The notes: generated by a model from the sequence alone, not told the origin. Counted from the first letter of the stretch, positions 1 to 31,500 are shown. The stretch: 64,000 bases of DNA from an uncultured Crenothrix sp. (GCA_964450225.1 CAYVFT010000002.1:4044-68043); one strand, 5' to 3'. Made by a program: numbers and translations.

Positions 1-8146
<8,146 letters not shown>

Positions 8147-8203
8147 AGCCTATGGCACATCGCCTGCACTTCGAATTAACCTGTTTATCTGGAGTCGCTT
8201 CCA

Positions 8204-10373: not shown

Positions 10374-10404
10374 TTCAGCCAAACATTAAAATACAATAAT
10401 GAAT

Positions 10405-11931: not shown

Positions 11932-12697
11932 AGTTCATCAGACGTAGAATCCGCTCCGAAATACCGGGATGTAGCACGGATAAAAACCAAGTCCCTAGAT
12001 TCAGCGGAAACGGGAAACTGATCCGCGGCTGATCACGTTCCAGGCCACGCTTTATAGATCGGGCCGCCTTTTCCGCAGACCACAAAAAAGGCTTCGGCCC
12101 AGGCATATCACGGCACATTTGTGACTCAACATAGCCAGGCATCACTACATTGACACGGATGCCCTTCGGATTTAGCCAGCCTCGCAGCGCCTCACCATAT
12201 GCCTTTAATGCCGCTTTGCTGGCGCAATAGCTAGGGGTGACCGGCAATCCAAAATAGGCGGCCAGTGAACTTATCAACGCAATCTGACCATCTCCACGTG
12301 CACGCATTGAAGGGAGAACAGCATCAACTGTTGCCATCGCCGCCAGCACATTGATCTCAATCAATGCTTGAATATCCTCCCAGCGTTCACCCGCACCCTC
12401 CGGACCTATGTTCGTATTTACACCTGCATTCACAATCACCAGATCCAGTTTCTCCTGTTGACATATCTCTTGCAGCCATACCGAGAGTTCATAACGGTTA
12501 CGCACGTCCAGCACGCGAGTCACTACCCTTGAGCCCCGTGCCTCGCACATAGTCGCCAGCTCCGCCAGGCGATCTGCATTGCGACCCTGGAGAATCAGGA
12601 CATTACCCGGCTCGGCATACACTTCAGTCAGAGCGGCCCCGATGCCGCCAGTTGCACCTGTAATTAACACTGTGCGGGAAGACGCTGATTTTGTCAT
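11921..12697 (-). CDS. Short-chain dehydrogenase/reductase (SDR)
   Basis: TGATGGIGAAL Rossmann motif, NAG, and the YCASKAAL catalytic YxxxK. The start was moved to the ATG at 12695-12697 (MTKSASSRTVLITGATGG), which overlaps the upstream TGA as ATGA. The track ORF start at 12778 adds 27 unlikely residues. Confidence 0.85.
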   Translation of the reverse strand: MTKSASSRTVLITGATGGIGAALTEVYAEPGNVLILQGRNADRLAELATMCEARGSRVVTRVLDVRNRYELSVWLQEICQQEKLDLVIVNAGVNTNIGPEGAGERWEDIQALIEINVLAAMATVDAVLPSMRARGDGQIALISSLAAYFGLPVTPSYCASKAALKAYGEALRGWLNPKGIRVNVVMPGYVESQMCRDMPGPKPFLWSAEKAARSIKRGLERDQPRISFPFPLNLGTWFLSVLHPGISERILRLMNYGG

Positions 12698-13920: not shown

Positions 13921-14960
13921 CGAACCCCCACGACACGGCGCAATACCATTCTGAAGATTTCCCGCCACCAGGGTTCAGCTCCCCCCGACTTGACCCGCCA
14001 GGCCAGAAGTTCATCCAGCGCCTGCTCTGGTGTAATCAACGCATCACTATAACGGCTCAGGTAAATGGGATACTCAATCAGCACCCCTGCCACCAGTTCG
14101 TCAAGCAATAACCGTCTGGTCCTCCGTAAATTAGGAGCAACATCTAACGTGAGTCCCCAGCCTGAATAAAAAGGTTGACCATAACATGTCACAGATTTGC
14201 CACGCAACAATGCCTCAAATCCGGCCAATGAGGTCAGCACATGAACTTCATCCACGGCCATGAGCAAATCCCCCATGACAGTATCCGTCACCAGCTCATC
14301 ACACCAGTACCGTGCCTTATCCTCCCCTGCCCCTTTGGCTCTCAATCTTGCCATCACATCAGGATGAGGTTTGTAAACGATATAAGCATCCGGATTAGCC
14401 TGACGAACAGCCTGCAATAACCCGACATTCGAACGAATCTTCGGTGCACCATAGAGCAGCGAAGCATCGCTCTCGACCTGGCCGGGTACCAGAATAACTT
14501 TTCCCACGCCATATGGACGTTGCCAGACAGAAATACCGACGTTGTACTTGGTGACCCCCTCGGCAACGATACGTTTCCGTAGCAAAGTGGCGCGTCGTAT
14601 CATAGCTGGATCGAACGCTGTATCAGCCAGCAAATGCTCAAGATCAGAAGGTCGGGTTGCGTCATAATATATGCCTCGACTATCCACCACCCAAGACATG
14701 GGCCGGATCAGATCGCAACCCAAGCCAACAGATCGCAAAAAACCATCCTCCACCCGCAATATCTTCACATCTTTGGCTAACTCGCCATTCACTGGCTTCA
14801 TACCCCAGACTAACAACACCCCACCCTCAGGAGCTTCGGCAGCGCTGGTTATGAACACGACTCGTACACCAGGAAAGCACTGGCGCACAGCCGATCTTTT
14901 CCAAGTGGAAAAATCAAGCGCATAAATCACTGATGCACAAAACAGACTAGCATGCCGCAA
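13917..14960 (-). CDS. kpsC: KpsC-like beta-Kdo transferase, single-domain (half-size) form
   Basis: LRVEDGFLRSVGLG, PGQVESDASLLYG, YKPHPDV, LTSLAGFEALLRGK, GQPFYSGWGLT. At 347 aa it has one Capsule_synth module, whereas classical KpsC has two. Confidence 0.7.
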   Translation of the reverse strand: MRHASLFCASVIYALDFSTWKRSAVRQCFPGVRVVFITSAAEAPEGGVLLVWGMKPVNGELAKDVKILRVEDGFLRSVGLGCDLIRPMSWVVDSRGIYYDATRPSDLEHLLADTAFDPAMIRRATLLRKRIVAEGVTKYNVGISVWQRPYGVGKVILVPGQVESDASLLYGAPKIRSNVGLLQAVRQANPDAYIVYKPHPDVMARLRAKGAGEDKARYWCDELVTDTVMGDLLMAVDEVHVLTSLAGFEALLRGKSVTCYGQPFYSGWGLTLDVAPNLRRTRRLLLDELVAGVLIEYPIYLSRYSDALITPEQALDELLAWRVKSGGAEPWWREIFRMVLRRVVGVR

Positions 14961-15117
14961 AACTCAACCACTACAAAAATACTTGAAAACAGAAAGGGTA
15001 AGAGTTTGCCACTGAACCTGGATAACTCGACGGCAAGAATAGAAACACGTAGGTTCAATTTTTCTCTCATTTTCGAGATAACTATCGCTCCACTAAGGGA
15101 ACCTCAATTTAATTTTA

Positions 15118-15846
15118 TCATAGCGAGGTGCATGGAGACGAAACAATCTGATTAATAACGGAGAATTTTTTATCCGCTACCAAGGCGCTGCAAACTCCCT
15201 CCTCCAACTCAAAGTCCAAAACATGCCATGCCGAAGGCGTCCCACATTTTGCAGGAATCCTTAAAAATTCTGCCGGATTTTCAGGGTTAATGACACACTG
15301 ATTTAATCCTAAAGCAATGCCATAACCTGTGGCTTTTACAAAGGCTTCTTTCTTTGTCCAGGTGCGGTAAAACGCCTGGTTTTTTTGGGTTTCCGGTAAC
15401 TGAATCCAGTAAGTGGCTTCTTCTTTAGAAAAACTTTTATTAACCAATCCAGATAAATTACTTCTTTGCCCACAAATCTCAACATCAACCCCCAGCCGAC
15501 AATTCCAACCCATGGCAATCATCCACCTGTCTGCTGAGTGAGATAAATTGAATGCCAACTCGGGATAATCAGCCAGATAGGGTTTACCATGTTCGGCTTT
15601 TTTTATCCTTATCTTTTCCGGCGACTGATTAAGCACTTGAGCCAACAGGTTCCTTAATCGTCCATGTATTTCTACATAGCGTTGGTGTAACAATGCATTT
15701 TTAAATTTTCCTGCCTGAGTTTGCTCGGCTTCGTCCAGAACACCCCAGTAAGCTTGATAATGCGTGTTCTCGCCGGTTATCTTGCCGTGCCATATTTCTA
15801 CTTCATTAACGCCCAACAACCGCCCTGCCCTCACCTCGTCTGTCAC
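15118..15846 (-). CDS. 4'-phosphopantetheinyl transferase, Sfp type
   Basis: GKPYL...FNLSHS, GVDVE, and WTKKEAFVKATG motifs. Confidence 0.85.
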   Translation of the reverse strand: MTDEVRAGRLLGVNEVEIWHGKITGENTHYQAYWGVLDEAEQTQAGKFKNALLHQRYVEIHGRLRNLLAQVLNQSPEKIRIKKAEHGKPYLADYPELAFNLSHSADRWMIAMGWNCRLGVDVEICGQRSNLSGLVNKSFSKEEATYWIQLPETQKNQAFYRTWTKKEAFVKATGYGIALGLNQCVINPENPAEFLRIPAKCGTPSAWHVLDFELEEGVCSALVADKKFSVINQIVSSPCTSL

Positions 15847-17479
15847 TGGCTGCTTCCAATGTCTTTACCCTTTTATTTAACAACACAGCCTGCATATCGC
15901 CATAGGGGTAGCGCGCTTGTTTCAGTTGATGCCCCATCTCGGCAAGTCCCTTAAGCTCGGAATCGGTCATTGCGCCTTTTTCATATTCGATCACATCGGG
16001 CATAAATTGATGATGGAAACGCGGCACTTGCACCCATGAATTAGGGCCATTGCCTTTGGCGAAATCCAGTGCTGCCAACAACACCATAGAAATAATACGA
16101 CTGCCGCCCGGTGTGCCCAGTACAGCAACACTGCTATCGTTTTCAAGAAAAGTAGGCGTCATGCTGGACAGCATACGTTTTCCGGGAGCAATGGCATTGG
16201 CAACGCCGCCAATCAGTCCGTAACCATTCATAGTACCCGGAAGACTGGCAAAATCATCCATTTCATCATTCAATAGCACACCTGTTCCTGGAGCAACAAA
16301 ACCTGAACCAAACGGAAAATTAATGCTGAGAGTTGCGGCAACCCGGTTGCCTTCATCATCAATAATTGAGAAATGGGTAGTATTGGTGCCTTCCGGTTGT
16401 TGCTCTATTTCACCTGACAGCATGTTGCTGGGCAAGGCTTTATCAGTCCGGATACTGCTGCGCAATCCCGCTGCGTAATCTTCACTCAACAAGCGTTTAA
16501 CGGGGATGTCAATAAAATCTGCATCACCCAGATATAAAGTACGATCGTGATAAGCGCGGCGCATTGCTTCAGTTACCAGATGTTTACGGGTAATCTCATC
16601 CGCTTTTTGCAAATCGTAACCCGATAAAACATTCAATGCTTCAATCAAAACAATGCCGCCGGATGATGACGGCGCCGCGCTGGTGATTTTTATACCGTTG
16701 TATTGGCCTCTAACCGGTTCCCGCTCGACAACCTGATAAGACTCAAGATCTTCTTCTGTCCAGATGCCGCCTGCTTTTTTGACACCCTTCACCAGTTTAT
16801 GGGCTATGTCTCCACTATAAAATCCGTCCCGACCTGATTCAGCCAGGTGTGTCAATGTCTTGGCCAAATCGGGTTGCCTGAGTATTGAATAGAGTTTGGG
16901 CAGCTTGCCGTCATTGAGAAATATCCCGGCTGTCGCCGGGTATTTATTGATCAACCCGGATCTGAATTTCAGTAACTTCAGGTAACGCTCGCCAATCGCA
17001 TAACCTGTCTGTGCATACCGGATTGCCGGCGCCAAACTTACGGCAAGCGGCAACTTCCCATATTTTTCTGCTAGATGCACCAATCCCGCAGGCATTCCAG
17101 GAATTGCAGCGGCTAAAGCGCCATCGAGGGATAATTTTGCAATTACCTTCCCTTCTTTATCCAGATACATATCCTTGTGAGCCGCCATGGGCGCTTTCTC
17201 TCGGCCATCAATAAGGGTCTCAAAACCGTCTTTTTCCCTGTGTAGCAACCAGTAACCGCCACCGCCCAATCCTGAGCCGGATGGCTCAACAACCGCCAAA
17301 GCCGCGCTAACCGCAACGGCCGCATCAAACACATTGCCGCCTTTATCCAGAATTTCAAATCCCGCAGCCGTTGCCAATGGATGCGCGCTGGCAATCGCCA
17401 CTTTATGCCCGTCCGCATAAACCTGCGACCCCCAGAAAAAAGCCATTAAAATAATGGCTGTATAACATTTATTTAACAT
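15806..17479 (-). CDS. ggt: Gamma-glutamyltransferase (periplasmic, with signal peptide)
   Basis: N-terminal signal-like MLNKCYTAIILMAFFWGSQVYA. The TTHFSIID autoprocessing/nucleophile Thr motif and GGSRI, both typical of GGT. The gene overlaps the PPTase start by 41 nt. Confidence 0.9.
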   Translation of the reverse strand: MLNKCYTAIILMAFFWGSQVYADGHKVAIASAHPLATAAGFEILDKGGNVFDAAVAVSAALAVVEPSGSGLGGGGYWLLHREKDGFETLIDGREKAPMAAHKDMYLDKEGKVIAKLSLDGALAAAIPGMPAGLVHLAEKYGKLPLAVSLAPAIRYAQTGYAIGERYLKLLKFRSGLINKYPATAGIFLNDGKLPKLYSILRQPDLAKTLTHLAESGRDGFYSGDIAHKLVKGVKKAGGIWTEEDLESYQVVEREPVRGQYNGIKITSAAPSSSGGIVLIEALNVLSGYDLQKADEITRKHLVTEAMRRAYHDRTLYLGDADFIDIPVKRLLSEDYAAGLRSSIRTDKALPSNMLSGEIEQQPEGTNTTHFSIIDDEGNRVAATLSINFPFGSGFVAPGTGVLLNDEMDDFASLPGTMNGYGLIGGVANAIAPGKRMLSSMTPTFLENDSSVAVLGTPGGSRIISMVLLAALDFAKGNGPNSWVQVPRFHHQFMPDVIEYEKGAMTDSELKGLAEMGHQLKQARYPYGDMQAVLLNKRVKTLEAASDRRGEGRAVVGR

Positions 17480-17800: not shown

Positions 17801-18228
17801 TTATCAGGTTCAAATAGTAAAAATGTCTTTAAAATTCATGGTGATTTCTCTCATGGGCACACTTTTAGTTTTGGTAATAGTTCTGGGCTTCGCCTTGCAC
17901 TGTAAATAAATCTCTGAATAAAATTACTTGCACCGCTTGCCGGTGGTCAACACGTACAAAAAAACCGTGTTACTGGCCTAAATTTTTACGACATGGCATC
18001 TGTGTAGTCCATACAATTTTTCAATCCTCACCCAATCAAGATATAAATTAGCTTCACTGGTTTTGGGATTCTGGATTAAAAAACAATTTGATTTACTATA
18101 ACGGTAATCCATCTGCTCTTCAACATTTCAGTTCAAGGCAATATCATACGCCAATAAATCATTGCTTTTTATGATCCCCAAAAATTTCGGAGTAAAATGA
18201 AGCGTTTGATTATTAATTACAACAAATA

Positions 18229-19620
18229 ATGAAGCCTAATCTATATGGTGTTTATCAGATTATTATGAGAAAACTAGTAATTAATAACCTGTCCGGCATG
18301 ATTTTTATTGCTTTAACAGGCATTTCACCTTTACAAGCTCAGGATTTATCTGAAACTTTTGAGCTGGCATTGCAGAATGATCCGGTTTTAAAAGAAGCTC
18401 AAGCCAATCAATTAGCAACCGGTGAATCCAGACCACAAAGTATTGCCCGGCTCCTGCCAAATCTTTCAGCGAATGGTTTAAGCAGCTCGGATTGGTTACG
18501 TAATCAAAAATATCATGTCGATTCGCGTAGTCCAGATTATCGAGGTCCTAATCAGAGTTACTGGAGCTTCGTTTTTAATATTAAATTAACCCAGCCCTTG
18601 TTTCACTGGGACTACTGGATTCAGTTAAGCCAATCCGACAATCAAATTGCCCAGGCTGAAGCTGATTATCAGGCGGTGTTACAAAAACTGATGGTTAGAA
18701 CGACTGAAGCCTATTTCAATGTGCTATCCGCTCAGGATACCTTGGAGCTTATCCTGGCAGAAAAGGAATCTATTGCTCGGCAACTTGATCAGGCGAAACA
18801 ACGATATGAAGTTGGCCTGAATTCAATAACCGATGTATACGAGGCGCAGGCAGGTTTCGATGATGCCATAGCTAATGAGATAGAAGCCGTTCACGACCTC
18901 GAAAATAAAAAAGAGGCCTTGCGCGAAATCATCGGTGACAATGAGGTACAGCTAAACTCTCTGGGCGCAACGCTCCCATTACTTAAACCTGAGCCCGCAA
19001 ACATTGCGGACTGGAGTACTACAGCTGAAACCAATAACTTCAATATCATTTCGGCACTCAATAAAGCGGAATTTTCGCGTAAATCGATCGATGTGCAACG
19101 CGCAGGACATTTGCCGCAGCTGGATATGGTTGCACTTTATAGTGATTCTGATGTGAACAGTACCTCCGGATTCCGGGGCGACACCCAAAGTGTAGGCGTG
19201 CAATTGAATATTCCTCTGTATGAAGGAGGCGCTGTAAACTCAAGGACCCGTCAGGCAAGCTACCAATACGAAGCTGCTAAAGAGAATTTAATTGCCGTAA
19301 AACGCGCCGTGAAACGCCAAGTTAAAGATGCATATAACGGCGTAGTAACCAATATTAGCCGTGTAGAAGCGCTAAAAACCGCAGTAACATCGGCAGAAAG
19401 CGCTTTGGAAGCGACAGAAGTCGGTTTTGATATTGGCACCCGAACCATGGTCGATGTGCTGGCCGAGCAAAAAAAATTATACCGGACCAAAAGAGATTTT
19501 TATCGTAGCCGTTATGATTATTTGATTAACAGTATCAAGTTAAAACAAGCATCCAGCGAATTGACTCAAAATGACCTTGTGCAGATTAACCGTTTATTGG
19601 TGTCAAATCGTAAAGGGTAA
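18229..19620 (+). CDS. TolC-family outer-membrane factor (type I secretion / efflux outer-membrane channel)
   Basis: Signal peptide (an alternative start at 18265 gives MRKLVINNLSGMIFIALTGISPLQA). It has the two-fold internal repeat of the OEP family, with AQ..L..A......L.. heptad-rich segments, and is TolC-like in length (about 450 aa). Confidence 0.85.
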   Translation: MKPNLYGVYQIIMRKLVINNLSGMIFIALTGISPLQAQDLSETFELALQNDPVLKEAQANQLATGESRPQSIARLLPNLSANGLSSSDWLRNQKYHVDSRSPDYRGPNQSYWSFVFNIKLTQPLFHWDYWIQLSQSDNQIAQAEADYQAVLQKLMVRTTEAYFNVLSAQDTLELILAEKESIARQLDQAKQRYEVGLNSITDVYEAQAGFDDAIANEIEAVHDLENKKEALREIIGDNEVQLNSLGATLPLLKPEPANIADWSTTAETNNFNIISALNKAEFSRKSIDVQRAGHLPQLDMVALYSDSDVNSTSGFRGDTQSVGVQLNIPLYEGGAVNSRTRQASYQYEAAKENLIAVKRAVKRQVKDAYNGVVTNISRVEALKTAVTSAESALEATEVGFDIGTRTMVDVLAEQKKLYRTKRDFYRSRYDYLINSIKLKQASSELTQNDLVQINRLLVSNRKG

Positions 19621-19633
19621 CAATGATTGAAGA

Positions 19634-20587
19634 TCAGGTTTTTGGTGATGGCAATTTTTCGTCGTTAATGAAATTTACCTTGCATCGAAGTCCCGCTGAA
19701 ATTTTATGACCGGGATTGGGCAAGTTCAACCTGATGCCAAAGGTACCGCTCGACGCATGAATGACTGAATCAACGACAACGACCTTCGCATGATAAACCT
19801 CATCGACTGGCTGTTCCGCTTTAACTTTCGCTTGCATTCCCACATGGATACTGCCTAACAATTGTATTGGGGCGATCACTTCGACGTTCAGTGGATCAAT
19901 TTGTGCGATTTTTACGACCGGTTGATCCTCCACGTATTCACCTGGTGATTTCATGCGTTCGACCACAACGCCATCTATGGTACTTTTTAGATAACGCTGA
20001 TCAAGCACTTGCTGGGCATGTGCCAGTTCCAATTGAGACAAGTGTTGTAATTCAATAGCTTTTTTATGTTCATATTCAGCTATCACACTCAATGTTTTTG
20101 CATCATCATATTCATGAAGCGAAGCAAGCTTTTTGTTAAATAAGGTTTCCAATTGTTCGGCCGAGCGCTTTTTCATTTCAAACTCGGCTTTTCGGGCATG
20201 AATATCGCCTTCCATATCGGCACGCGCCTTCGTTAATCGAACACTTGCTTCTTCAATGCCTGATTTCAATTTAGCAATCACCTGGCCTTTTTTGACAATA
20301 TCTCCTCGCTCAACATTCACCACTTCCAGAACACCTTGCACTGGACTACTAATCTCGACCACGTCATGAGGCTCAATAACGCAATCCAGTGCATTACCCT
20401 CCTCTGCCGCGGCAGGTGACACGACCATCGTCAGAATGCCAAGAAGCATAAGGAAATCTCTAAAAACCCGCGCTCTCTTCGGGCAAAGGTATCTACACAA
20501 ATTGGCGCTCTTTCTCCCCTGTGGCAGGGAGAAGGAGCTTTTTGAATTATTAGAAATTCTCATAAATTTATTAATTGTTTTTTCCAC
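19634..20587 (-). CDS. Membrane-fusion (HlyD/efflux periplasmic adaptor) protein, short form
   Basis: TM/signal-anchor segment LMLLGILTMVVSPAAA, lipoyl-like half-motifs (VERGDIVKKGQVIAKL ... IDGVVVER), a coiled-coil hairpin and a beta-barrel region. It lies 10 nt downstream of the SecA-like gene. Confidence 0.8.
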   Translation of the reverse strand: MEKTINKFMRISNNSKSSFSLPQGRKSANLCRYLCPKRARVFRDFLMLLGILTMVVSPAAAEEGNALDCVIEPHDVVEISSPVQGVLEVVNVERGDIVKKGQVIAKLKSGIEEASVRLTKARADMEGDIHARKAEFEMKKRSAEQLETLFNKKLASLHEYDDAKTLSVIAEYEHKKAIELQHLSQLELAHAQQVLDQRYLKSTIDGVVVERMKSPGEYVEDQPVVKIAQIDPLNVEVIAPIQLLGSIHVGMQAKVKAEQPVDEVYHAKVVVVDSVIHASSGTFGIRLNLPNPGHKISAGLRCKVNFINDEKLPSPKT

Positions 20588-20597
20588 AGTTGTATCC

Positions 20598-22595
20598 TTA
20601 CTCTGATTTGCCAGAAAACGCTAAAAGATTTTGTAAGTTTATATCCATTTTTAGTAATCCGGCACGAATAGCGTCATGATGTCGTTCGGCCCGTGTTTGT
20701 GTTCTTTGAAACAGAGCATAGGCCATTAATTGATAACCTGGCGCATTGCTTTTCGCCATTTTCTTCACTGCGGCGATCAACCAGGAAAAGCCATATTTTT
20801 TCAGGATTTCGTCCTCTAAAGACAACAACATTTCATAACTGCCCGCATCACCTTGCCGACCACAACGTCCAAATAATTGCCGGTCTATTCGCCTAGCTTC
20901 GTGACACTCGGTTACAATTACGTGCAGGCCGCCCAATTCATTAATACCCGGTGCGAGCTTGATGTCGGTTCCCCTACCTGCCATATTGGTGGCTACTGTG
21001 ATGCAGCCCCTGGTTCCAGCATTTTGAATGATGCTTGCTTCATCAGCATCTTGCCGGGCGTTCAAGACACGATGCGGCAAGCCTTTCATAGACAATAGCC
21101 GTCCCAAGTGTTCCGATGCTTCTACCGAACGGGTTCCGACCAACACAGGTCGTCCCTGTTGATGAATATCACTAATTCGTTGCGCGATACCTTCCCATTT
21201 TTTTTCAGCAGATGCGTAGTAAATCGTCGGTAACTGCTTACTTTGAATCGGTTTGTTTGGAGGAATCCTGATAACGGGAATCCGGTAAACTGAAAACAAC
21301 TCTTTTCTTACTTCCTTGGCAGTTCCTGTCATACCGGCCAAATGCAAATAACGTCGAAAAAAAGTCTGGTAACTGATACGTGCAATGGTTTCTTTCTGAT
21401 CACTCATTGCGCATTCTTCCTTGGTTTCTATCATTTGATGCAAGCCTTTTTCCCAGGAGCGGTCGGGCATAACCCGCCCAGTAAACTCGTCGATAATCAC
21501 TACCTTGCCGTCTTTCACCAGATAATGGATATCTTTCAAAAACAAATGCTGTGCTGATAATGCCTGTAATACCAATTCGCGGCTTCGTTTGGTAGCCGAC
21601 CAAATACCTGTTAATGGCTCAACCATCTGCTTAACGCGAAGCAATCCTGACTCAGATAATTCTATTGTGCGGTTACGATGATTGATAAAAAAATCATGGC
21701 CTGATGTTAATTGTCCCGCAATCTGCAGGGCCTGCTGATAAACCAGAAGCTGTTCGAGTGACTGTTTTTCCCGGGAAAGTATCAAGGGTGTCCTGGACTC
21801 GTCAATAAGTACACTGTCCGCTTCATCAACTATTGCAAAACATAAACCTCGCAACAGCAAGCGGGACGTTTTGGCTTCCGGCTGGGCATATAAGCGGTTC
21901 AACTGAAGCAGCAAGCGGCTGCCTTTACGCCCCAAGACCATACGATCCTTCAAATAATCAAAAGTCAGTTGTTTGTTACTACAATAAGTGATATCACAGG
22001 CATAGGCGGCCTGGCGAGCAGGAAAATCCATACCTTCCGTTATGGTGCCAACGCTTAAGCCGAGAGTTTGATAAATTGGCTCCATCAATTCAGCATCACG
22101 CTTCACCAGATAATCATTGACCGTGACGATATGCACCGGAACGCCCGCCATTGCAGCCGTACAGGCGGGTAATGTCGCCGTCAGTGTTTTCCCTTCACCG
22201 GTATTCATTTCCGCAATCATACCTTTCAACATAACCAAACCGCCTATGAGCTGAACATCAAAATGCCGCATAAACAGTTTTCTTCCGGCGATTTCCCGAA
22301 TTAAAGCGAAGGCTTCAATCACCGCCTCATCCTCAAAGCCTCTTAAATGTAGCCTTGATTTGATGTGTTTAATGTGTTTTTCGAGTTCGTCATCATTCAG
22401 TTTTTCAAGTCGTTCGCATGATTGATTGACCGCTACGGCAAAAGCATCAAGTGACTTTTGATTATGTTTAAACGTCAGCTTAGCGAGGTTAATTGCCCAT
22501 GACAATGATTGGTCAAGAAAACCTGCAGGGGGGCTATTTTTCTCCGGGTACAGACCCTGTAAGATGCCGGGTTTTAAAACAGAACTGCTTGCCAT
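20598..22595 (-). CDS. SecA paralogue (DEAD motor plus preprotein-crosslinking domain) lacking the C-terminal translocation domains
   Basis: MRHFDVQLIGG; Walker A MNTGEGKT (22185-22208); TVNDYL; Walker B region VDEADSVLIDESRTPLILS; MTGTA; TNMAGRGTDI; RIDRQLFGRCGRQGDAGS. The protein ends about 68 aa after this last motif (665 aa total), inside what would be the first part of the SecA helical scaffold. Confidence 0.85.
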   Translation of the reverse strand: MASSSVLKPGILQGLYPEKNSPPAGFLDQSLSWAINLAKLTFKHNQKSLDAFAVAVNQSCERLEKLNDDELEKHIKHIKSRLHLRGFEDEAVIEAFALIREIAGRKLFMRHFDVQLIGGLVMLKGMIAEMNTGEGKTLTATLPACTAAMAGVPVHIVTVNDYLVKRDAELMEPIYQTLGLSVGTITEGMDFPARQAAYACDITYCSNKQLTFDYLKDRMVLGRKGSRLLLQLNRLYAQPEAKTSRLLLRGLCFAIVDEADSVLIDESRTPLILSREKQSLEQLLVYQQALQIAGQLTSGHDFFINHRNRTIELSESGLLRVKQMVEPLTGIWSATKRSRELVLQALSAQHLFLKDIHYLVKDGKVVIIDEFTGRVMPDRSWEKGLHQMIETKEECAMSDQKETIARISYQTFFRRYLHLAGMTGTAKEVRKELFSVYRIPVIRIPPNKPIQSKQLPTIYYASAEKKWEGIAQRISDIHQQGRPVLVGTRSVEASEHLGRLLSMKGLPHRVLNARQDADEASIIQNAGTRGCITVATNMAGRGTDIKLAPGINELGGLHVIVTECHEARRIDRQLFGRCGRQGDAGSYEMLLSLEDEILKKYGFSWLIAAVKKMAKSNAPGYQLMAYALFQRTQTRAERHHDAIRAGLLKMDINLQNLLAFSGKSE

Positions 22596-22628
22596 GAGAA
22601 GTAACCTTATACAACAAGAGAGCTTTAA

Positions 22629-24776
22629 TTAAACACTAAATGTTCTCAAAAATAACTGCCGCGCCAATCTATACCATTGCATAGCCAGAGATTCCCGGCC
22701 ATGATTAAAGCGGATATAAACACGTTCACCGATGTTTCTAACATCGGTACCTGGCGGAAACGCCAATTCAATATGAAAAACGGGCTCAAAGGCTTTTTCA
22801 CCTTTTTCATCGGCCGGATTAACCGGAATCGTCCCGCCCCCCGTTATTCCCAAAGCCGGGCTGGGCAACACATCGGATGCCGCCGGTATCTCCCGTAATA
22901 TTTTGGCCGGATATAGATGTTTTATATTGTCTGCCAGGCGCACCTGTACATTCCGGGTTCGCTCCTTGACCAGGCCGATATTATCTTGGGTGACTACCGT
23001 ACGAATGGTCGTTATAGGGTAATTGACCACATAACCCACTAAATCCCCTTTATGCAAAAATCGATCTTTCAAGTCTTCGGCATGCGGCACGATAAAAACG
23101 CCTTTGCCCTGACTTTTTAACGTCAGATTATCTATTCGCTCGGTCACTTCTGCCAATTCAGCTGTTACCGACCTCATCTGTTCTTCAATGATCTGTGCTT
23201 TAACCCTGTCTTCCATCCAGGATTCTTTAAGTTTTGCCTCTAATTCATCAAGCTGATTATCAAGGATATTTTTTTTCAATTTTAATATTGGATCGTCCAG
23301 CTCAATCAAAATTTGGTCACGTACCACAACAGTATTGGAGCCGGCCAGGATTTTAGTTACAAAACCTTCCGTCTTGGCGCGCACTTTAGCCTGTTCTGGC
23401 AGCCAGACAACGCCTTCAGCATAGGTATTTAAAGGCATGGGAAATAGCAGCAGAAAGCCCAATATAATAAGCGCTAAAGTCACACTAGTGGCAATCGTCC
23501 TGACCCTGCTTTGCTGAATCATTGGATTGCTGAAAACAAACCGGAAACACTTGGTGGCCGGCACCAAAATCATGGTTCCAACCGCCCATAGAGCGAGGAT
23601 AACACCAATCAGAAAAAACTGGCTAGCGACAAAAAAGGTTATGGAAAAAGTAATCAGCATTCGATAACAGAATGAAGCTATTCCATAAATCAAAAACCAG
23701 CTCCGTTCACCTTTAGCGGTAACTGGAGAATTGACCGTCTTTACACCAAATACATAATGTTGAAACAGGTAGCCAAGGTAATTATTGGCACGACTGGCTA
23801 AATTGGGGATTTCGATCAAATCCGCAAAAATATAATATCCATCAAAGCGCAAGAGAGGATTACCATTAAAGAAAATCGTCGATGCGCCACCAATTAACAT
23901 GACATTGTATGCAATCGCCCTGACAATACCTTGCTCCACATTAAGCCATATAAACAACGCTATCGCTGCAAGAAACATCTCCACAGCCATCCCCGCTGCC
24001 CCGACAATGGCTCGCTTTTTTTTATCCCGAAAACCCCAGGCACTGGAGGCATCAACATAGGGAATAGGCATAAAAACCAATAGCATCATGCCCATTTCAT
24101 GGACTTCACCACCCCACACCTTGGTGGAAAAAGCATGTCCAAATTCATGCAGAAGTTTTACCAGTGGATAGACAAAGAACAGCAGCAGCAGATTGCCGGG
24201 AGCCCAGACCCGATCCGATGCGTCCCTGGATAGGTCAACCCAATGGGAAGCTGCCAGTATCAATGCCGTGCTTACAACAAGCACCCATACCAGTATGCCA
24301 AGCCAGCCAAACAAAGGGCGAACCAAAAAAAGCCATCGGTCCAGAAAAGCGTCAGGATCCCACAACGGAAACCTTATAGACAATGGGCTCCATAGTCGTT
24401 GCAACCATTTACCCCGTTGTTTACGCTCATACCGTTGAAAAAGATCCAGAGTATCTGGCGGTACATCACATATCAATAAATCACTACCGTGCAATTGGCC
24501 CAACAACTTGACCAATTCATCCTGTGTGGGCGCATCATCGCCTAAATGCTCAAGCGCCAATTCCCAAATCTCTTGGAAATTACGAGACCCATTCATTAAT
24601 GAAATAATGTAATGAGCCTGAGGAGAAAATCGATGATTCAGACTGCTGGAATAATCCTGCAGGATATACCAGAGTTGGCCACGGTAGTGATGGCGATGAA
24701 TTTGAATATGTCCTTTTAACCTCGGCTGCAAACTGGCGATTCGATACCAGGAAGAACTAAACATCGATTCAGACAT
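22629..24776 (-). CDS. Fusion protein: PqqD/RRE-like N-terminal domain (weak) + M50 site-2 metalloprotease membrane core + HlyD-type membrane-fusion periplasmic domain
   Basis: HEFGH (24135-24149) followed by NGNPLLRFDGYY (the NxxPxxxxDG M50 motif), and multiple TM helices. The C-terminal ~270 aa has lipoyl halves and a coiled coil (LDELEAKLKESWMEDRVKAQIIEEQMRSVTAELAEVTERI). The N-terminal ~100 aa follows a PqqD-like pattern (LMNGSRNFQEIWE...DELVKLLGQL). Confidence 0.75.
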   Translation of the reverse strand: MSESMFSSSWYRIASLQPRLKGHIQIHRHHYRGQLWYILQDYSSSLNHRFSPQAHYIISLMNGSRNFQEIWELALEHLGDDAPTQDELVKLLGQLHGSDLLICDVPPDTLDLFQRYERKQRGKWLQRLWSPLSIRFPLWDPDAFLDRWLFLVRPLFGWLGILVWVLVVSTALILAASHWVDLSRDASDRVWAPGNLLLLFFVYPLVKLLHEFGHAFSTKVWGGEVHEMGMMLLVFMPIPYVDASSAWGFRDKKKRAIVGAAGMAVEMFLAAIALFIWLNVEQGIVRAIAYNVMLIGGASTIFFNGNPLLRFDGYYIFADLIEIPNLASRANNYLGYLFQHYVFGVKTVNSPVTAKGERSWFLIYGIASFCYRMLITFSITFFVASQFFLIGVILALWAVGTMILVPATKCFRFVFSNPMIQQSRVRTIATSVTLALIILGFLLLFPMPLNTYAEGVVWLPEQAKVRAKTEGFVTKILAGSNTVVVRDQILIELDDPILKLKKNILDNQLDELEAKLKESWMEDRVKAQIIEEQMRSVTAELAEVTERIDNLTLKSQGKGVFIVPHAEDLKDRFLHKGDLVGYVVNYPITTIRTVVTQDNIGLVKERTRNVQVRLADNIKHLYPAKILREIPAASDVLPSPALGITGGGTIPVNPADEKGEKAFEPVFHIELAFPPGTDVRNIGERVYIRFNHGRESLAMQWYRLARQLFLRTFSV

Positions 24777-24788
24777 GGCGATTCTCCG

Positions 24789-26942
24789 TTATAAGCCTTC
24801 TGGCCACCAGGTCCATAAGGATAAACGCAGCCAATCAAGCAGATTTTTACTCCAAATCCAGATTAATTTTCGCTCCCCTATTCGTATTTTGCCTACGCCT
24901 TCCATGCCGGGTCGCAAAAAGTCCAATTTTTTTTCCAGTTCCGCTTCAACACGAAAATAATTCCGCCCTTCCTTTGTTTCTGATACCGGCGTAATTTTAT
25001 TTACACTAAAAGGAATTACTGTATCTGAGAGACCTGTTAAAACCAACTCACCTTTTTGAGCAACTTTAATATCGGAAATATCTCGCTCATCAACTTCCAA
25101 AACAACCCGATAATCTTCGAGCGGTGCAATTTCAAACAATACGTCACCTCGTTGCGATGGCGCTCCCAGTGATTGACTTAAATCACCCGATACAATGACG
25201 CCGTCAAACGGTGCTTTTATTTGAATTCTTGCCAGTTGTGCATCCGTTATATCCAACTGAGCTTGCGCCTGTCCGAGTTGAGCATTCAGAACACTGATTT
25301 TACTGCGTTCAGCCTGACCCAAAGCATCCCGGTACTCTTTAAGGTATTGTTCTTTCTGGCTTTCCCATTTGGTCCTTTCAAGTATCAGATCTGTGTCATC
25401 CAGTTTAGCTAATAACGTGCCCTTCTTGACTATGTCGCCCGGTCGAACATGCGCTTCGCTGATATAACTATCGAAAGGTGTAGCAATGACCCTCTGAATG
25501 GACCCTTCCAGTTTAGTATCTGCGGCAATACGGTAATCGCCTGTGGCAAACAGACAAAACAGCAATGCACCCAATACCAATAAAGCAGCCAGTTTTAGTC
25601 CTCCATGCGCAGGCCCTAACAAGCATGCAAAAAAGTTCTTAATAGAAAGCCACGCTTTTTGGCCTAACCATAAATCTTCCTTTCTTTTGGTTTCCAGAAT
25701 TGGTCCAATCAACGTAGCGATAGTCTCACATAATTCCACTGTTTGACGCTCAAACGATTGTCCGGGTGGACGCTCCAGGGTGATGGCTCCAAACACATTG
25801 CCATTACTACAGAACGGAATCGTACACACACTGCCACTTCCCTGTTCACGCATAAGCTTTTCGTGGCACCTGACAATTTGTACGCTCTTTTCTTCCAACG
25901 GTGGATAAACTACGGAAGCCTTTTGCTCCATGGCTTCATCCATGGACAAGCCTATGCTTTGAATCAAGTTGGATTTTTTGGCGAAATCGACACTGTGCGA
26001 TAGTGCAGTCACCTGGATATATTTACCCTTAAGAAAACCGATACTAACCCTATCGCATTTCAGCAATGTGGCCAATTCGGTCGCCACTGCGGTAACGGAA
26101 GCCTGGAATTTTTCATGCTCCAGACTGGAGGTGATCAACTCAAGAACAGTAACTAACTGCTGATTTTCGGGCGTATATTTCTTGCCTTCTTCACGACGGA
26201 CAAACAGTTCCAGCCAGGATATTCCCCATTGCAGTTGTCTCATACTAGCTCGCATTAAATGCTCTGCACGGGCAACAATTTCAAACGCAACCACACCGTA
26301 AAGTTGCTCACCAACCAGCAAAGGAAAACCGATATAACAGACAGGTATTTTTAATCCGGGATCTTGTTGACCCTGATTTCTTAATACCCCTCGCCTTTCA
26401 TGTAAAGCAAGCTCGGCTGCCTCGGTTAATCCCAAAGATCCTCGCTGCCCCTCTGGCCAAAAAGAAATAGGTACAAAAGAACCGCTATCAGGTTTACCAA
26501 GAACTACAATACCCCGAGTCACGCCGCTAAGCATTGCACATTGCAGGCTCAACCAGAAACGAGCTGCTGTTTCAAGTGAATTTGCGTCGTTAAACTGCTT
26601 CCATAACTTTTGGTAATGGGTCTGAAATCCCGTATCGTTCTCAAGAAATGATACACCCGATAGTAATCCCCCTCCTTGCTTGGGTTTAATCCAACAGACT
26701 TGAGCCCGTTGACTAACCAAACCAAAAGGCATGCTATAGGTCATTGCAAGGACATTGTATTTTTCCAAATAGGGTCTGGAAGCCTCAGCAACGAGTACTC
26801 CTAACCCTCCGTCAGACTTATTCTCAATAGTACCAATAATTTCGTGGGAATCGCATTGAATAATGACCGTGCAGCCGGATTCAACAGGAATGCGCTCCTC
26901 GTTGCGGAGCTCAGCCCTGTATGCTTGTTTTTGTGTATCCAT
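24789..26942 (-). CDS. Fusion protein: PilZ (c-di-GMP-binding motifs intact) + GAF + TM + HlyD-type membrane-fusion domain
   Basis: PilZ RxxxR = RNEER (26892-26906) and [DN]xSxxG = NKSDGG (26805-26822). A GAF-like region (ATLLKCDRVSIGFLKGKYIQV...), the TM helix LKLAALLVLGALLFCLFA, then an HlyD region (VRPGDIVKKGTLLAKLDD, coiled coil, IKAPFDGVIV). Confidence 0.75.
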   Translation of the reverse strand: MDTQKQAYRAELRNEERIPVESGCTVIIQCDSHEIIGTIENKSDGGLGVLVAEASRPYLEKYNVLAMTYSMPFGLVSQRAQVCWIKPKQGGGLLSGVSFLENDTGFQTHYQKLWKQFNDANSLETAARFWLSLQCAMLSGVTRGIVVLGKPDSGSFVPISFWPEGQRGSLGLTEAAELALHERRGVLRNQGQQDPGLKIPVCYIGFPLLVGEQLYGVVAFEIVARAEHLMRASMRQLQWGISWLELFVRREEGKKYTPENQQLVTVLELITSSLEHEKFQASVTAVATELATLLKCDRVSIGFLKGKYIQVTALSHSVDFAKKSNLIQSIGLSMDEAMEQKASVVYPPLEEKSVQIVRCHEKLMREQGSGSVCTIPFCSNGNVFGAITLERPPGQSFERQTVELCETIATLIGPILETKRKEDLWLGQKAWLSIKNFFACLLGPAHGGLKLAALLVLGALLFCLFATGDYRIAADTKLEGSIQRVIATPFDSYISEAHVRPGDIVKKGTLLAKLDDTDLILERTKWESQKEQYLKEYRDALGQAERSKISVLNAQLGQAQAQLDITDAQLARIQIKAPFDGVIVSGDLSQSLGAPSQRGDVLFEIAPLEDYRVVLEVDERDISDIKVAQKGELVLTGLSDTVIPFSVNKITPVSETKEGRNYFRVEAELEKKLDFLRPGMEGVGKIRIGERKLIWIWSKNLLDWLRLSLWTWWPEGL

Positions 26943-27299
26943 GCTTATGATTTAATAACGATTACAAACTGAAATGTTGAAAACGGCCAGCAACTTCAGC
27001 CGGAATAACATAAAAGACTTATCCTCAAGATGACCCGTTTTACTGTGAAACAGTTGCATAGTTCCCACACTCCGGTATTGGAGGGTCCATCTAACAACAC
27101 TACGGCGTTGTGTGACGCTAGAGCGCCATCAGTGACATTCCCACGCCGGAGCGTATCGTTATACACAGCTTTCATGCAAAGTACGACAATCCGCCCCCCC
27201 TTTTTTCAAATGGAGGTGAGCTCATGGTTTGGACTTGTGTATAAAAATGAATGCCGGAACGTGGGAATAAACTAACAATTAGTGAATTGACCAAAAAAT

Positions 27300-28097
27300 C
27301 TAGTGCAATCCCTCTTTTGGAGGCAGATCACTTTCATCAACTGCCATAGTTTCTTCGTCGGGTTTTTTATCTGCATCATGAGCGGCAGTTTTTTCTACCA
27401 TCGAATTAAAATTTTTCATTGATTGTAAATGCAGATAAAGCAATTCCAACTCATCAGTTTTAAAGAGTGCAACAATCTGGTCATCAGGCAAATTTTTCAA
27501 ACGATCACGGTTGACTGCCATAAATCCGGCTAATCGTAATTGCTGTCCGGAGTTCAAAGTAAACTGGGCTTGCATCGGCTCCAACAAATCCAGCTCTTGT
27601 AATTTTTTACAAAACATTTGGGTACGACGAAACTGTCCCTGGTAGTCATTAACAAAGCGCAATACATTTTCCAGATATTGAGTACGTTCACCATCAGCAT
27701 CGAATAAATGCTCCCCTCGACCATCCTGATTGCACCCGGCAAATTCCTCGTCTATGCACAGCGTAAATGTCGATTCGTCCGAATTACTCGAAAAAACAAA
27801 TGGATAGCGCCGGATAAAGGCAGGAATATATTTTGCCTTCCAGCCGTTCGTTTCGTTCAAATAAAGGTTCTCATTATCGCGCATACCCAGAATGGCAATA
27901 GGCATCATCGTCTCATCTTTTCCTGCAAACACAATACTATATTCTGCTGCCGCGTGAGGAAACTCCACCGCTACCAGCGGCACCGAATTCACTTGCCGGG
28001 CAAAGGCATAATCAGCACCAGTCTTGACGGACCAACCTTTATGTCGCTGGCTGGATAGTGGCACGGCTCTTTCATATATTAATAACTGTGTGCTCAT
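27300..28097 (-). CDS. SapC-family protein (function unknown)
   Basis: Strong match by eye to the SapC family pattern: VPL......H.....V......FA......VPLV..EF..AA.EY.IVF; YIPAFIRRYPFVF; LCIDE. A GAGGA Shine-Dalgarno lies 9 nt upstream of the ATG. Confidence 0.8.
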   Translation of the reverse strand: MSTQLLIYERAVPLSSQRHKGWSVKTGADYAFARQVNSVPLVAVEFPHAAAEYSIVFAGKDETMMPIAILGMRDNENLYLNETNGWKAKYIPAFIRRYPFVFSSNSDESTFTLCIDEEFAGCNQDGRGEHLFDADGERTQYLENVLRFVNDYQGQFRRTQMFCKKLQELDLLEPMQAQFTLNSGQQLRLAGFMAVNRDRLKNLPDDQIVALFKTDELELLYLHLQSMKNFNSMVEKTAAHDADKKPDEETMAVDESDLPPKEGLH

Positions 28098-28511: not shown

Positions 28512-31500
28512 TTATTTTCTCCAGCTACGTGCAGCCATTTTCTTCAACCAGGTTACCAGACCTTCGATTTCACCTGCCTCAGTTACAGGTGCAGCTGAAG
28601 TAAGCCGTTTATCATCGGCAAGCGACAGTAGGTACAACTCATGACGCGGCTTGTTTAAGTCCTGGTCCATGACAACCAGAAATTCATCCTGCTCATTCGT
28701 GACGGTCATCGCACTCTGCTGATCAGACTTGAGAAACGACCCTGAATCGGCATCGAAAAAACTGACCTCTGTTGTAGACGTTGGCAATTCACGTACGCCA
28801 GCCGCCAGCGTGGCATCCATCAATTCTGCTTGACCGTTGGCTGCTTCCGTATGCGTATACCCCAGAACGTGACCTATTTCATGACTAATCACAGTCAACA
28901 GATCCATGCGCCCATTCGCATCGCTTTGCGCCGTGGCCAGCAAACTGCCGTCCGGCATACCCAGATATTCCTCGCTCAATGCCGGTGTGGGATCGACGAA
29001 CCAGCCATAACCCGCTGCATCGGTGTCAACTAAAATACGACCATCACTAATCTCGCCCAGGTTCAGTCCAGGCAGATCCACCACATCCACCCGTATCGCC
29101 TCCAGTAGGTCGAGTTGCTGTGATGTCAAACCGACACCCGCCCACTGCTGTTTGGCTTCGGCCACAATAGAAACCAGGTCGGACGAATTTAATAGCTCTC
29201 CATTGGCTTCTGCTGTGGCCGGGGCTGCTGCAGCTTGCAACAATTTCGGATCCTTGTTCTCCGGATGGGCCTGCTGGTTGCCGTTGTGGAGATTGCCCGC
29301 CACGCACAACACCAGCCGGCCTTGCGGATCTCTGATCTCGATCTGGGCGAAATCGGAAGTTCCCCCCTCGCCGTTGTCGGTGAACATGAACGACACATGA
29401 TACCCCGACACTCCGTTGAACGAGCCGATACCCTGACCGACCAGCGTGTCGAAAGGCGCGGACCGCGGCAGCGGATTCAGCGTTAAATCGTCGTAGCAGG
29501 CCATGGAGGTGACCTGCTCGAGGTGGAAGTTATTTTTGTCCCAGTTGACCTCGAGATTGTTGGGCCCGATCGTCATGTCGCAGTGCAGTTCAAAGCCGTG
29601 CGTGACCCGCGTATCGTCGGCCGTGAAGATGCTGCCGCCGCCGGTCATTCGACCGTCGGTGTGCGCCGGCAAGGTGACCACGAAGTTCGCCGGATCGTCG
29701 TCGCGCACCTTGGTGCCCGTCACGACGTCGGTACCGGTGACCTGGGCGACGTTGATGTAGGCGCCCTGCTGCAGCACGGTGGTGTAGACACCGGCCGAGG
29801 TGTACAGCCAAGTCTCGCCGGGGTTGAGCAGGCCGTCCGTATTCTTGTCGCCCACGTTCCATTGGGCCTTCATTACCGGGACGGGCTTGAAATCGTCACC
29901 AATCACATTGGTGACTGCGTCGTCGACGATCGTGATGTCTTTCAACGCATTGGCGCCGAGGTTGGTCACCTGGAATGTAAAGGTCGGAACCGACCCATTC
30001 TGCAGCGTCACCGGGCGGAGCGGGTCGTTCGCGTCCTCTTGTACCGTCGGATGATTTGGATCGACCGCATTGATTGACTTAACGATGCTGATGCCCGCCG
30101 ATGTACCGAAGTAGTTGGCCTGATCATCGTCGATATAGCTCAGGCCCGTGTCGTCATTGAATGCCTTGACAGTCACGGTGTTCGCGTGCTGGCCTGCCAA
30201 CGCCGTCGTCGGCGCACCGGTCACGCCGGCCGAGGTGAACAGCCAGACTTCTTCGACACCGAGGATGCCGTCAGCAACACCGCCGTTGGGACCCACGTCA
30301 CCGCTGACGTAAGTCGGCATGAAGCCGTCGGAATCGCGCAGGTTAACGATGTTGAGCGGGACGCCGGCCTGGTTGTACACGAGGTAGGTCCAGACCACCG
30401 GTGTGCCGATCTGCAGGATCGGCCCGGTCGGGAAGTCGGCATCCTCGAAGCGCGTCGGCGCCGTCGGCTGCTGCGCATTGATCGCCTTCTCGATCCGGAT
30501 GCCGCCGGTCTGGCCCAGGTAGCTGGCTGCATCGGTGTCGGTGACGACACGCGCAGTGCGGGTATCGGTCCCGGTAGCCTTGACGACGTTGGTGTGCAGG
30601 CCGAGTTCGGCCGATGAGCCGAAGGCCGCGCTGCCCACCGAGGTGTAGCTCCACACCTCGCCGACGTCCAGCAGGTTGTTGCGGTTCGCGTCGCCGACGT
30701 TAAAGCCGGCGCTGAGCACCGCCACCGGCGTGAAGTCGTCCGTGGCCAGGCCCGGCGTGCCGTTGTCGTCGATCAGCGAGGTCACCGTCAGTGGACCGTT
30801 GCCGCTATTGGACAGCAGGTACGTGAAGGTCACGGCCGTGCCTACGTTCATCACCACTGGCGCTAACGGGTTGTCGGCATCTTCTGCGATCGTCGGCCGG
30901 CGCGGGTCGACGGCGTTGATCGCCTTCTCGACGTCAATCCGGGCGACGGTGCCGAAGAGGTTTGCGGGATCGTCGTCCATCACGACGGTATTGGTCCGCG
31001 TATTGACCGCGCTGACCGTAGCGTAGTTGGTGTACGTCCCCTCGCCCACGGTCCTCGTGGCGCTATATAGCCAGATCTCGGTCTTGTCGAGCAGGCCGTT
31101 CTTGTTGTTGTCGCCGGTGTTGTAGACCTTGCCGCCAGCCGTGATAGTCACCGGCGCCGGCACGAAGTCGTCGGCCGTGTTGCCAACTGTACCGTTGTCG
31201 TCGACCAGGGTCACGGTGCCAAGCGTGTCGGCCCCGGTATTGCTCACGGCATAGGTGAATACCGCCAACGTGCCGGCCGGCAGGATGACCGGCGTCGCCG
31301 GATTGTTGGCATCCTCGGCCGTGGTCGGCGCGAGCGGCTTGACGGCATTGACGGCCTTGACCACCTGCAGCCCGCTTTGCGAGCCGTAGTAGTTGGCCAG
31401 GTCGCTCGACGTGGCGACGGACGAGGTGACCGGGTCGCGCACCGACACGCTGCCCGTGTTGGTGTACTGACCGGCCGCGACGGTGCCGCTAGCGCGATAT

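Follow-up and report, generated by a model that had tools for sequence, protein, structure and literature searches.

We describe a minus-strand gene cassette in a 64,000-nt stretch of DNA from an uncultured Crenothrix sp. (CAYVFT010000002.1:4044-68043; hereafter the window, which is also the extent of our view of this organism's own genome), and argue from sequence comparison that it probably, though far from certainly, specifies a dedicated secretion apparatus that spans the envelope, works independently of ATP-binding cassette (ABC) transporters and serves the giant repetitive protein encoded beside it. The cassette comprises genes for a sensor protein with PilZ and GAF domains fused to a periplasmic adaptor of the membrane fusion protein type (GAF-MFP), an M50/site-2 protease (S2P)-type polytopic protein fused to a second such adaptor (M50-MFP), a short SecA paralogue and a short MFP. 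Its gene order recurs in other genomes, and the giants encoded beside it share an N-terminal leader. To our knowledge, every tripartite exporter in the textbooks draws its energy from an ABC, resistance-nodulation-division (RND) or major facilitator superfamily (MFS) pump, and the one established role of SecA is to drive SecYEG. If our reading is true, a SecA-derived motor together with an intramembrane protease, adaptors and TolC would constitute a new route across both membranes, and would explain the export of proteins of 8,000 to more than 12,000 residues that have no known signal, such as the Chlorochromatium symbiosis giants.

The arrangement itself is not new. A first-pass annotation of this DNA had called it a novel system, but the module, along with the idea of SecA as its ATPase and the M50 protein as its membrane component, had already been put forward in 2015 (PMC4452313; Kamneva, Poudel and Ward, PLoS One), a study that arrived at both independently and that we count as support. 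New here are the link between leader and cassette and a version of the system on E. coli plasmids, neither of which we found in the literature searched.

Conservation of the cassette and a leader common to adjacent giants

To survey the cassette across genomes, we scanned species with the M50-MFP, using one genome per species, and kept 80 loci whose six-frame open reading frames (ORFs) were compared with the window proteins. The M50-MFP has relatives in at least 597 species and, at E<=1e-30, forms 4,257 representative clusters; the order GAF-MFP, M50-MFP, short SecA, short MFP recurs in 80/80 loci as far as the flanks allow, with the GAF-MFP present in 75, the M50-MFP in 80, the short SecA in 74 and the short MFP in 60. 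These loci span Alpha-, Beta-, Gamma- and Deltaproteobacteria, Nitrospira, Myxococcota, Planctomycetota, Methylomirabilia, Acidobacteriota and Omnitrophota. The order is identical in Methylococcus sp. EFPC2 and Nitrospina gracilis 3/211, and the cassette is also carried by plasmids of Methylosinus sp. C49 and Pseudosulfitobacter sp. DSM 107133. This recurrence of the gene order in other genomes, in all 80 loci to the extent that their flanks reach, puts the arrangement far beyond what chance could produce, and the cross-genome co-conservation that the first-pass annotation had proposed as a check proved very strong. The regions within +/-10 kb of the 80 loci yielded no exporter-size ABC protein.

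The same annotation had proposed recording which cargo-like genes lie nearby, and here too a consistent pattern emerged. Bacterial genomes contain few ORFs of 1000 aa or more, and of the 37 loci whose flanks extend at least 4 kb in each direction, 29 have a non-HrpA ORF of this size within 4 kb of the cassette (2 of the 29 being doubtful). Four upstream ORFs of about 1,300 aa, initially taken as giants, turned out to encode HrpA-like helicases and were dropped from this count. All neighbours with a visible N-terminus (22/22, made up of 19 loci plus the giants of the Methylosinus, Pseudosulfitobacter and E. coli plasmids) carry a basic stretch followed by ELEPRxLLSA[D/G], located at about residues 15-60, or further downstream in a few ORFs with an uncertain start codon. 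NCBIfam assigns this motif to NF012209, LEPR-XLL, and a strict version of the pattern matched 16 loci vs. 0 in a reversed ORF set of 1.15 million residues.

Two complete plasmids illustrate the arrangement. On the Pseudosulfitobacter plasmid, a 12,918-aa LEPR-XLL giant is followed by genes for GAF-MFP, an S2P protein, SapC, short SecA and short MFP, while on the Methylosinus plasmid an 8,847-aa giant with the leader is followed by DUF3467, GAF-MFP, a 'PqqD family protein', short SecA, short MFP and TolC. Neither plasmid has an ABC-driven type I secretion system (T1SS) beyond the giant's start. Because cassette-adjacent giants share the N-terminal LEPR-XLL leader, the adjacent giant is the best candidate for the cargo in the window as well. 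The earlier suggestion that this giant could be the substrate therefore stands as a candidacy, backed by the leader in 22 other giants, with transport itself a prediction from sequence.

DUF4347 often follows the leader motif, with a HI(L/I)SHG ... LYGCDV pattern (e.g., L017 15683-16582 and L094 3598-4800). Its His/Cys pair resembles that of clan-CD cysteine peptidases and might, speculatively, serve self-processing.

We also considered whether the C-terminus of the window giant could mark cargo. The giant matches an RTX repeat (HemolysinCabind, 1.4e-8), DUF7507 and LktA_tand_53 repeats; the single RTX match lies ~2,100 aa from the C-terminus, which itself consists of a metzincin-like domain and a variable tail. 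A hidden Markov model (HMM) of this C-terminal domain of ~190 aa matches the cassette-upstream protein in 15 further loci (E 1e-32 to 7e-70) as well as the Pseudosulfitobacter giant (8e-51). The core of its AlphaFold2 (AF2) model reaches a predicted local distance difference test score (pLDDT) >90, and its best Foldseek matches, which are weak (E 0.016), are catalytic domains of matrix metalloproteinases. As a cargo signal the domain was rejected: of two domain proteins on long contigs (L085, L086), neither lies near a cassette, and because the domain also occurs on such proteins, it would not be the signal that selects cargo. The metzincin-like domain (HExxHxxGxxH) also ends other large proteins away from cassettes, for example at an RHS/YD-repeat locus.

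More distant relatives of the M50-MFP (~24% identity) were found on 18 E. coli plasmids, plus Citrobacter and Kosakonia plasmids (Table 1). In E. coli MS 115-1, a 4,459-aa Ig-like giant, whose LEPR-like N-terminus (MTTIKNRRLRPRAHRFALESRQLFDGA) precedes a DUF4347-like stretch, is followed by genes for TolC, a 293-aa adaptor, a 449-aa HlyD protein and a 710-aa M50-MFP with intact HELGH and NASPFMRFDG, and this operon has no ATPase gene. Because it holds everything else, the core of the system seems to consist of the M50-MFP, two more adaptors, TolC and a leader-bearing giant, with the short SecA added in the larger clade.

A further variant was seen in an Omnitrophota metagenome-assembled genome (L027, 6569-22103), where short MFP, GAF-MFP and M50-MFP are followed by a LEPR-XLL giant and no separate short SecA was seen within 10 kb. 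Because published Omnitrophota giants carry embedded SecA domains, the motor in this locus may be fused to the cargo.

Domain architecture of the cassette proteins

ORF calling in the window reproduced exactly the coordinates and spacings of the first-pass annotation, and Pfam and NCBIfam profile searches of the window proteins confirmed every one of its domain calls, including three MFP-type proteins, an S2P-type core, TolC and no ABC, RND or MFS pump among the window genes. The combination of Walker A and LSGGQ is absent from every window frame of at least 150 aa. Two gene starts were revised, as described below for the short MFP and the giant.

Table 1 Coordinates of the cassette, its neighbours and selected domains in the window, and locations of SecA-less relatives (by accession)
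Feature	Coordinates	Strand	Remarks
TolC-family outer-membrane factor, 463 aa	18229-19620	+	Convergent with cassette; 13 nt to short MFP
Short periplasmic adaptor (MFP), 317 aa from GTG start	19634-20587	-	10 nt to SecA-like gene
Short SecA paralogue, 665 aa	20598-22595	-	Nucleotide-binding domain (NBD) 1, preprotein cross-linking domain, NBD2, start of scaffold helix; 33 nt to M50-MFP
M50/S2P-type polytopic protein fused to MFP, 715 aa	22629-24776	-	12 nt to PilZ-GAF-MFP
PqqD/RRE-like N-terminal domain of M50-MFP, aa ~15-101	24474-24734	-	Predicted cytoplasmic
PilZ-GAF-transmembrane-MFP protein, 717 aa	24789-26942	-	357 nt to SapC
PilZ domain of the 717-aa protein	26625-26909	-	Lineage-specific N-terminal addition
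SapC-family protein, 265 aa	27300-28097	-	PF07277; 414 nt to giant ORF
Giant repetitive protein gene, at least 11,829 codons in window	28512-64000	-	Open at window end; candidate cargo
Metzincin-like C-terminal domain of giant, HEIGHVLGYTH	28614-29228	-	Domain HMM and AF2
SecA-less locus, E. coli MS 115-1 IncF plasmid (L093, L094)	NZ_CP146666.1 123597-143348		
SecA-less locus, Kosakonia cowanii (L091)	NZ_CP107078.1		

The M50-MFP has three parts according to its AF2 model (pLDDT 83) and hydrophobicity: an N-terminal domain of three strands and then three helices, a polytopic core, and a C-terminal adaptor with a two-helix hairpin. The window protein scores below the gathering threshold of Pfam M50 (E 0.002, 17.9 vs. 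27.2), while 14/14 family members match this model. The stretch from residue 159 to residue 445 is predicted to contain six hydrophobic segments, which places HEFGH (H210-E211-x-x-H214) and N306-PLLRFDG313, both invariant across 57 sequences sharing only 53-89% identity with the window protein, inside a polytopic membrane core, as is characteristic of the HExxH and NxxPxxxxDG motifs of site-2 proteases. The C-terminal part of the model matches MexA, MacA and AcrA (Foldseek E down to 4e-11), and HlyD_3 is found in 12/14 family members. Foldseek results for the whole model are dominated by this adaptor part, and the assignments of the S2P core and of the N-terminal domain, described next, draw only on motifs, Pfam matches and the order of secondary-structure elements.

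That N-terminal domain resembles PqqD and the recognition elements (RREs) of ribosomally synthesized and post-translationally modified peptide (RiPP) pathways. PF05402 (PqqD) matches 13/14 family members (best 2.9e-6; window protein 0.022), and the corresponding elements of the AF2 model are E24-31, E34-41, E46-50, H52-59, H67-81 and H85-97, which suggests a role in leader-peptide recognition. Homologues are 714-716 aa long in nearly all those listed, and in RefSeq they go by the names 'PqqD family protein', 'PqqD family peptide modification chaperone' and 'site-2 protease family protein'. The short SecA is likewise labelled 'prepilin peptidase' (L087 23074-25098; L088 22222-24138) or, elsewhere, 'DEAD/DEAH box helicase', and because these names mislead, the module is invisible in standard annotation.

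These features also invite the reading that the cassette matures and exports a RiPP-like peptide, with the RRE binding a small precursor, the M50 protein removing its leader, the adaptors and TolC expelling the product, and the giant gene being merely a frequent neighbour. Among named families, the M50 part indeed matches the daptide and YydH/LiaK RiPP metalloproteases best (daptide-type intramembrane metalloprotease model, 9e-44, 150 bits vs. a curated cut-off of 300), and both the PqqD-like domain and the RefSeq label of a peptide modification chaperone fit as well. We nonetheless regard this reading as quite improbable: inspection of the cassette, in the window and in related loci alike, turned up neither a conserved small precursor gene nor modifying enzymes, and this reading leaves the SecA clamp and the common leader of the neighbours unexplained. 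The one recurrent small gene encodes DUF3467 (~100 aa) and lies directly upstream of the GAF-MFP gene in 23/80 loci (e.g., L003 5465-5776 and L088 17744-18064), though it is absent from the window. Its copies are 44-67% identical to that of Methylococcus in most loci, unlike RiPP precursors. DUF3467 has no relative in the Protein Data Bank (PDB) by sequence, and the literature yielded nothing useful on its function.

The short SecA matches SecA_DEAD (1e-103), SecA_PP_bind (3e-29) and P-loop_SecA (5e-54) and no other SecA domain, and falls below all NCBIfam SecA/SecA2 equivalog cut-offs (best 629 bits vs. a cut-off of 814), with matches spanning only model positions ~13-605 of ~790-815. In a PDB sequence search it aligns to residues 33-601 of about 800 of B. 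subtilis SecA (E about 5e-138), the alignment ending at residue 601 where the chains run to about 780-840 residues. Given this alignment and the intact motifs GEGKT (Walker A), VDEADS (DEAD), TGTA, MAGRGTDI and GRCGRQGD, the protein retains the ATPase motor and the preprotein cross-linking clamp. With domain boundaries taken from established SecA structures, it stops in the first scaffold helix, without the helical wing domain, the two-helix finger or the C-terminal tail, in agreement with the earlier claim that the SecYEG-engaging C-terminal parts are missing. The family keeps a constant length of about 660-670 aa across many metagenomes. The short SecA is unlikely to be the only secA in its genome, because its homologues occur on plasmids and have been reported as secondary to a canonical SecA that is present alongside them (PMC4452313).

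The 717-aa sensor-adaptor carries PilZ at aa 12-106 (1.2e-6), GAF at aa 283-413 (5.4e-13), one transmembrane segment at ~448-466, and HlyD_3 (8e-20) together with HlyD_D23 over aa 483-690. The PilZ motifs RxxxR (R9-R13) and NxSxxG (N41-G46) are both present. The first-pass annotation had proposed control by cyclic di-GMP (c-di-GMP), but as a general feature this does not hold up: matches in nearly all other loci start at query residue ~100-130, missing the first ~110 residues, and among the 80 loci only L005 covers residues 11-717. Because this N-terminal region is absent from nearly all other loci, PilZ is judged from sequence to be a lineage-specific addition, and GAF the conserved sensor. 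In Methylococcus (L003 15130-16227, with a weak PilZ match) and on the Methylosinus plasmid (L088 28527-30464), the cassette has an adenylate/guanylate cyclase gene a few kb away, which may hint at the GAF ligand.

The short MFP matches HlyD_D23 (3.5e-17), HlyD_3 (2.3e-14) and RND_mfp (123 bits vs. a cut-off of 94.9). Its 317-aa ORF exists as first annotated, but gene callers start it at M47 (window 20449), giving a protein of 271 aa with a signal-peptide-like N-terminus (MLLGILTMVVSPAAAEE) and a gap of 148 nt rather than 10 nt to the SecA-like gene; M47 is likely the true start. The TolC-family protein, also with a signal-peptide-like N-terminus, matches PF02321 OEP (5.7e-59) and TIGR01844 (319 bits vs. 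a cut-off of 225), and on the Methylosinus plasmid its counterpart lies within the cassette operon. SapC matches PF07277 (2.1e-75), and a homologue lies inside or beside the cassette in 10/80 loci, as it does on the Pseudosulfitobacter plasmid.

Proposed export route and competing readings

In the mechanism that we propose, the giant cargo bears the leader seen in 22 cassette-adjacent giants, a basic stretch plus ELEPRxLLSA, which would be bound by the cytoplasmic PqqD/RRE-like domain of the M50-MFP. The short SecA would then push the unfolded chain N-terminus first, and the S2P-type polytopic core would act as the inner-membrane gate and probably remove the leader. Adaptor domains of the M50-MFP, GAF-MFP and short MFP would form a mixed tunnel that docks onto TolC, with the cytoplasmic GAF domain, plus in the window lineage a PilZ domain with intact c-di-GMP motifs, presumably gating activity. 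SapC here and DUF3467 elsewhere would be accessory factors. A broader claim, that the module and its SecA-less relatives make up a separate giant-protein pathway of leader, RRE reader, S2P gate, SecA-derived motor, adaptors and TolC, with no ABC transporter and no SecYEG, is one we put forward more tentatively, as a real possibility that falls short of being probable.

Several observations weigh against the proposed export role. We know of no S2P protein that serves as a protein-conducting channel, and the nearest named kin of the M50 part are RiPP leader peptidases. TolC adjoins the cassette in only 7/80 loci, and the motor is not universal, as the E. coli MS 115-1 operon illustrates. In the window, the giant's frame is open to position 64000 and the ATG at 63854, from which the gene had been annotated to start, is internal; the true N-terminus thus lies beyond the window, and any leader is outside our view. 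This giant also bears an RTX repeat, typical of ABC T1SS cargo, in a genome viewed only within the window. Lastly, no experimental study of the module was found in the literature, and M. extorquens AM1 expressed only the GAF gene in exponential phase (PMC4452313).

The RTX repeat and the view of the genome being confined to the window also favour the main rival, in which the cassette is a device for retention, release or processing, and a distant ABC T1SS exports the giant. GAF and PilZ would sense cyclic nucleotides, and the LEPR-XLL region would be cleaved to anchor or release the giant, much as LapD/LapG act on LapA. The invariant S2P catalytic motifs, the fusion of sensor domains to membrane proteins and a conserved N-terminal motif that could be a cleavage site are all in line with such a device, which however has no need for a SecA motor with an intact preprotein clamp, for three TolC-type adaptors or for an often co-encoded TolC. 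No ABC T1SS flanks the giants in three complete plasmid examples, and the active site of an S2P faces the cytoplasmic side or the membrane interior, unlike that of LapG, which acts in the periplasm. We therefore consider this device unlikely, and continue to favour a dedicated exporter for the giant. Direct tests of the question are within reach thanks to the cargo leader, the E. coli plasmid relative and cultured hosts, among them Methylosinus, Pseudosulfitobacter, Nitrospina, Marinobacterium and M. extorquens.

Other window genes bear on one further reading. Window 31-15846 holds a partial modular polyketide synthase (PKS; AT-DH-ER-KR-ACP), genes for an aminotransferase, glycosyltransferase, methyltransferase, sulfatase, SDR and PPTase, and two KpsC/KpsS-like capsule genes, followed by a GGT gene at 15806-17479; from its sequence, the stretch looks like a lipid or polysaccharide pathway. 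With PKS and capsule genes in window 1-15000 and adaptors that score as RND_mfp, the cassette could in principle be an ordinary tripartite efflux pump for a small molecule such as a PKS or capsule product. We give this very little credence: no RND, MFS or ABC pump is present, and in other genomes the cassette keeps its giant neighbour but not the PKS/capsule genes.

Base composition varies along the window, with a G+C content of 57-64% in much of the giant gene (28001-64000) vs. 42-45% in the cassette (18001-28000), and 46-49% in a giant-internal stretch at 44001-52000; repeat composition or mosaic origin could be the cause of this contrast. A 35-aa ORF at 26952-27059 was tried as a precursor peptide, shows no sign of being real and looks spurious, and a repeat-like motif in the 357-nt gap has no second copy anywhere in the window. 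Scans for promoters and terminators returned as many matches as in shuffled controls and are hence uninformative.

Comparison with known secretion systems

Measured against a canonical T1SS (HlyBD-TolC; LapBCE), the cassette shares an adaptor and a TolC-family factor, a large repetitive candidate cargo with an RTX repeat encoded alongside and, as we propose here, one-step export that bypasses the periplasm. It differs in having no ABC transporter (Walker A plus LSGGQ), in encoding three adaptor-type proteins instead of one, and in its putative motor, a SecA paralogue. What marks the cargo is an N-terminal leader as opposed to the C-terminal signal of T1SS substrates, such that the initial framing, in which giant RTX adhesins normally use an ABC T1SS, fits poorly. 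Where peptidase-containing ABC exporters carry a C39 or C39-like domain, the cassette has a membrane metalloprotease. In the part of a 2021 Chem Rev review of tripartite systems that was available to us, the module is not mentioned.

The short SecA has NBD1, the cross-linking domain, NBD2 and intact ATPase motifs in common with SecA and with the SecA2 proteins of Gram-positive bacteria and mycobacteria, but not their full domain set or family cut-off score. Unlike SecA, it has no wing, no two-helix finger of the kind that enters SecY and no C-terminal tail for binding SecB and lipid, and unlike SecA2 it is encoded with adaptors and TolC rather than with SecY2 or Asp proteins. The M50-MFP resembles S2P proteins such as RseP, and daptide/YydH-type leader peptidases, in its HExxH and NxxPxxxxDG motifs within a polytopic core and its PqqD/RRE-like N-terminus. 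It differs from both in being fused to a TolC-type adaptor, with no PDZ domain called, and from the RiPP leader peptidases in scoring below the daptide cut-off and in having neither a small precursor nor modifying enzymes encoded at the cassette.

Giant proteins have been connected with similar components before. In Chlorochromatium, SapC and TolC flank giant symbiosis proteins that lack any known signal, and these giants are co-expressed with a secA gained by horizontal transfer (Cag_1676), which may be of the short type. Omnitrophota and Actinobacteria giants embed a SecA_DEAD domain without scaffold or wing, for which self-export has been suggested (West-Roberts et al., bioRxiv 10.1101/2023.11.21.568195). 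The likeness lies in a scaffold- and wing-less SecA motor tied to a giant protein; the difference is that SecA sits inside the giant there, whereas here it is a separate 665-aa protein in an adaptor/TolC operon.

The closest match is the module that Kamneva and colleagues identified in silico by comparative genomics (PMC4452313): a secondary SecA_DEAD protein without wing or scaffold, a GAF+HlyD protein, a weak Peptidase_M50+HlyD protein, a HlyD/Biotin_lipoyl protein and sometimes OEP, with no ABC transporter. Its biological role was called completely unknown, and horizontal transfer was inferred, in keeping with the spread across phyla seen here. With a wing-less SecA_DEAD protein, a polytopic M50-HlyD protein, and GAF-HlyD and short HlyD proteins in one operon, the window locus is a member of this secondary-SecA, type-I-like module: the four core genes are the same, and their order is that of M. 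extorquens AM1 META1p2402-2399. That study names no cargo, giant, SapC, DUF3467, PilZ or PqqD-like domain, and the window locus adds to the module it described a PilZ domain, SapC, a convergent TolC gene and an adjacent giant gene.

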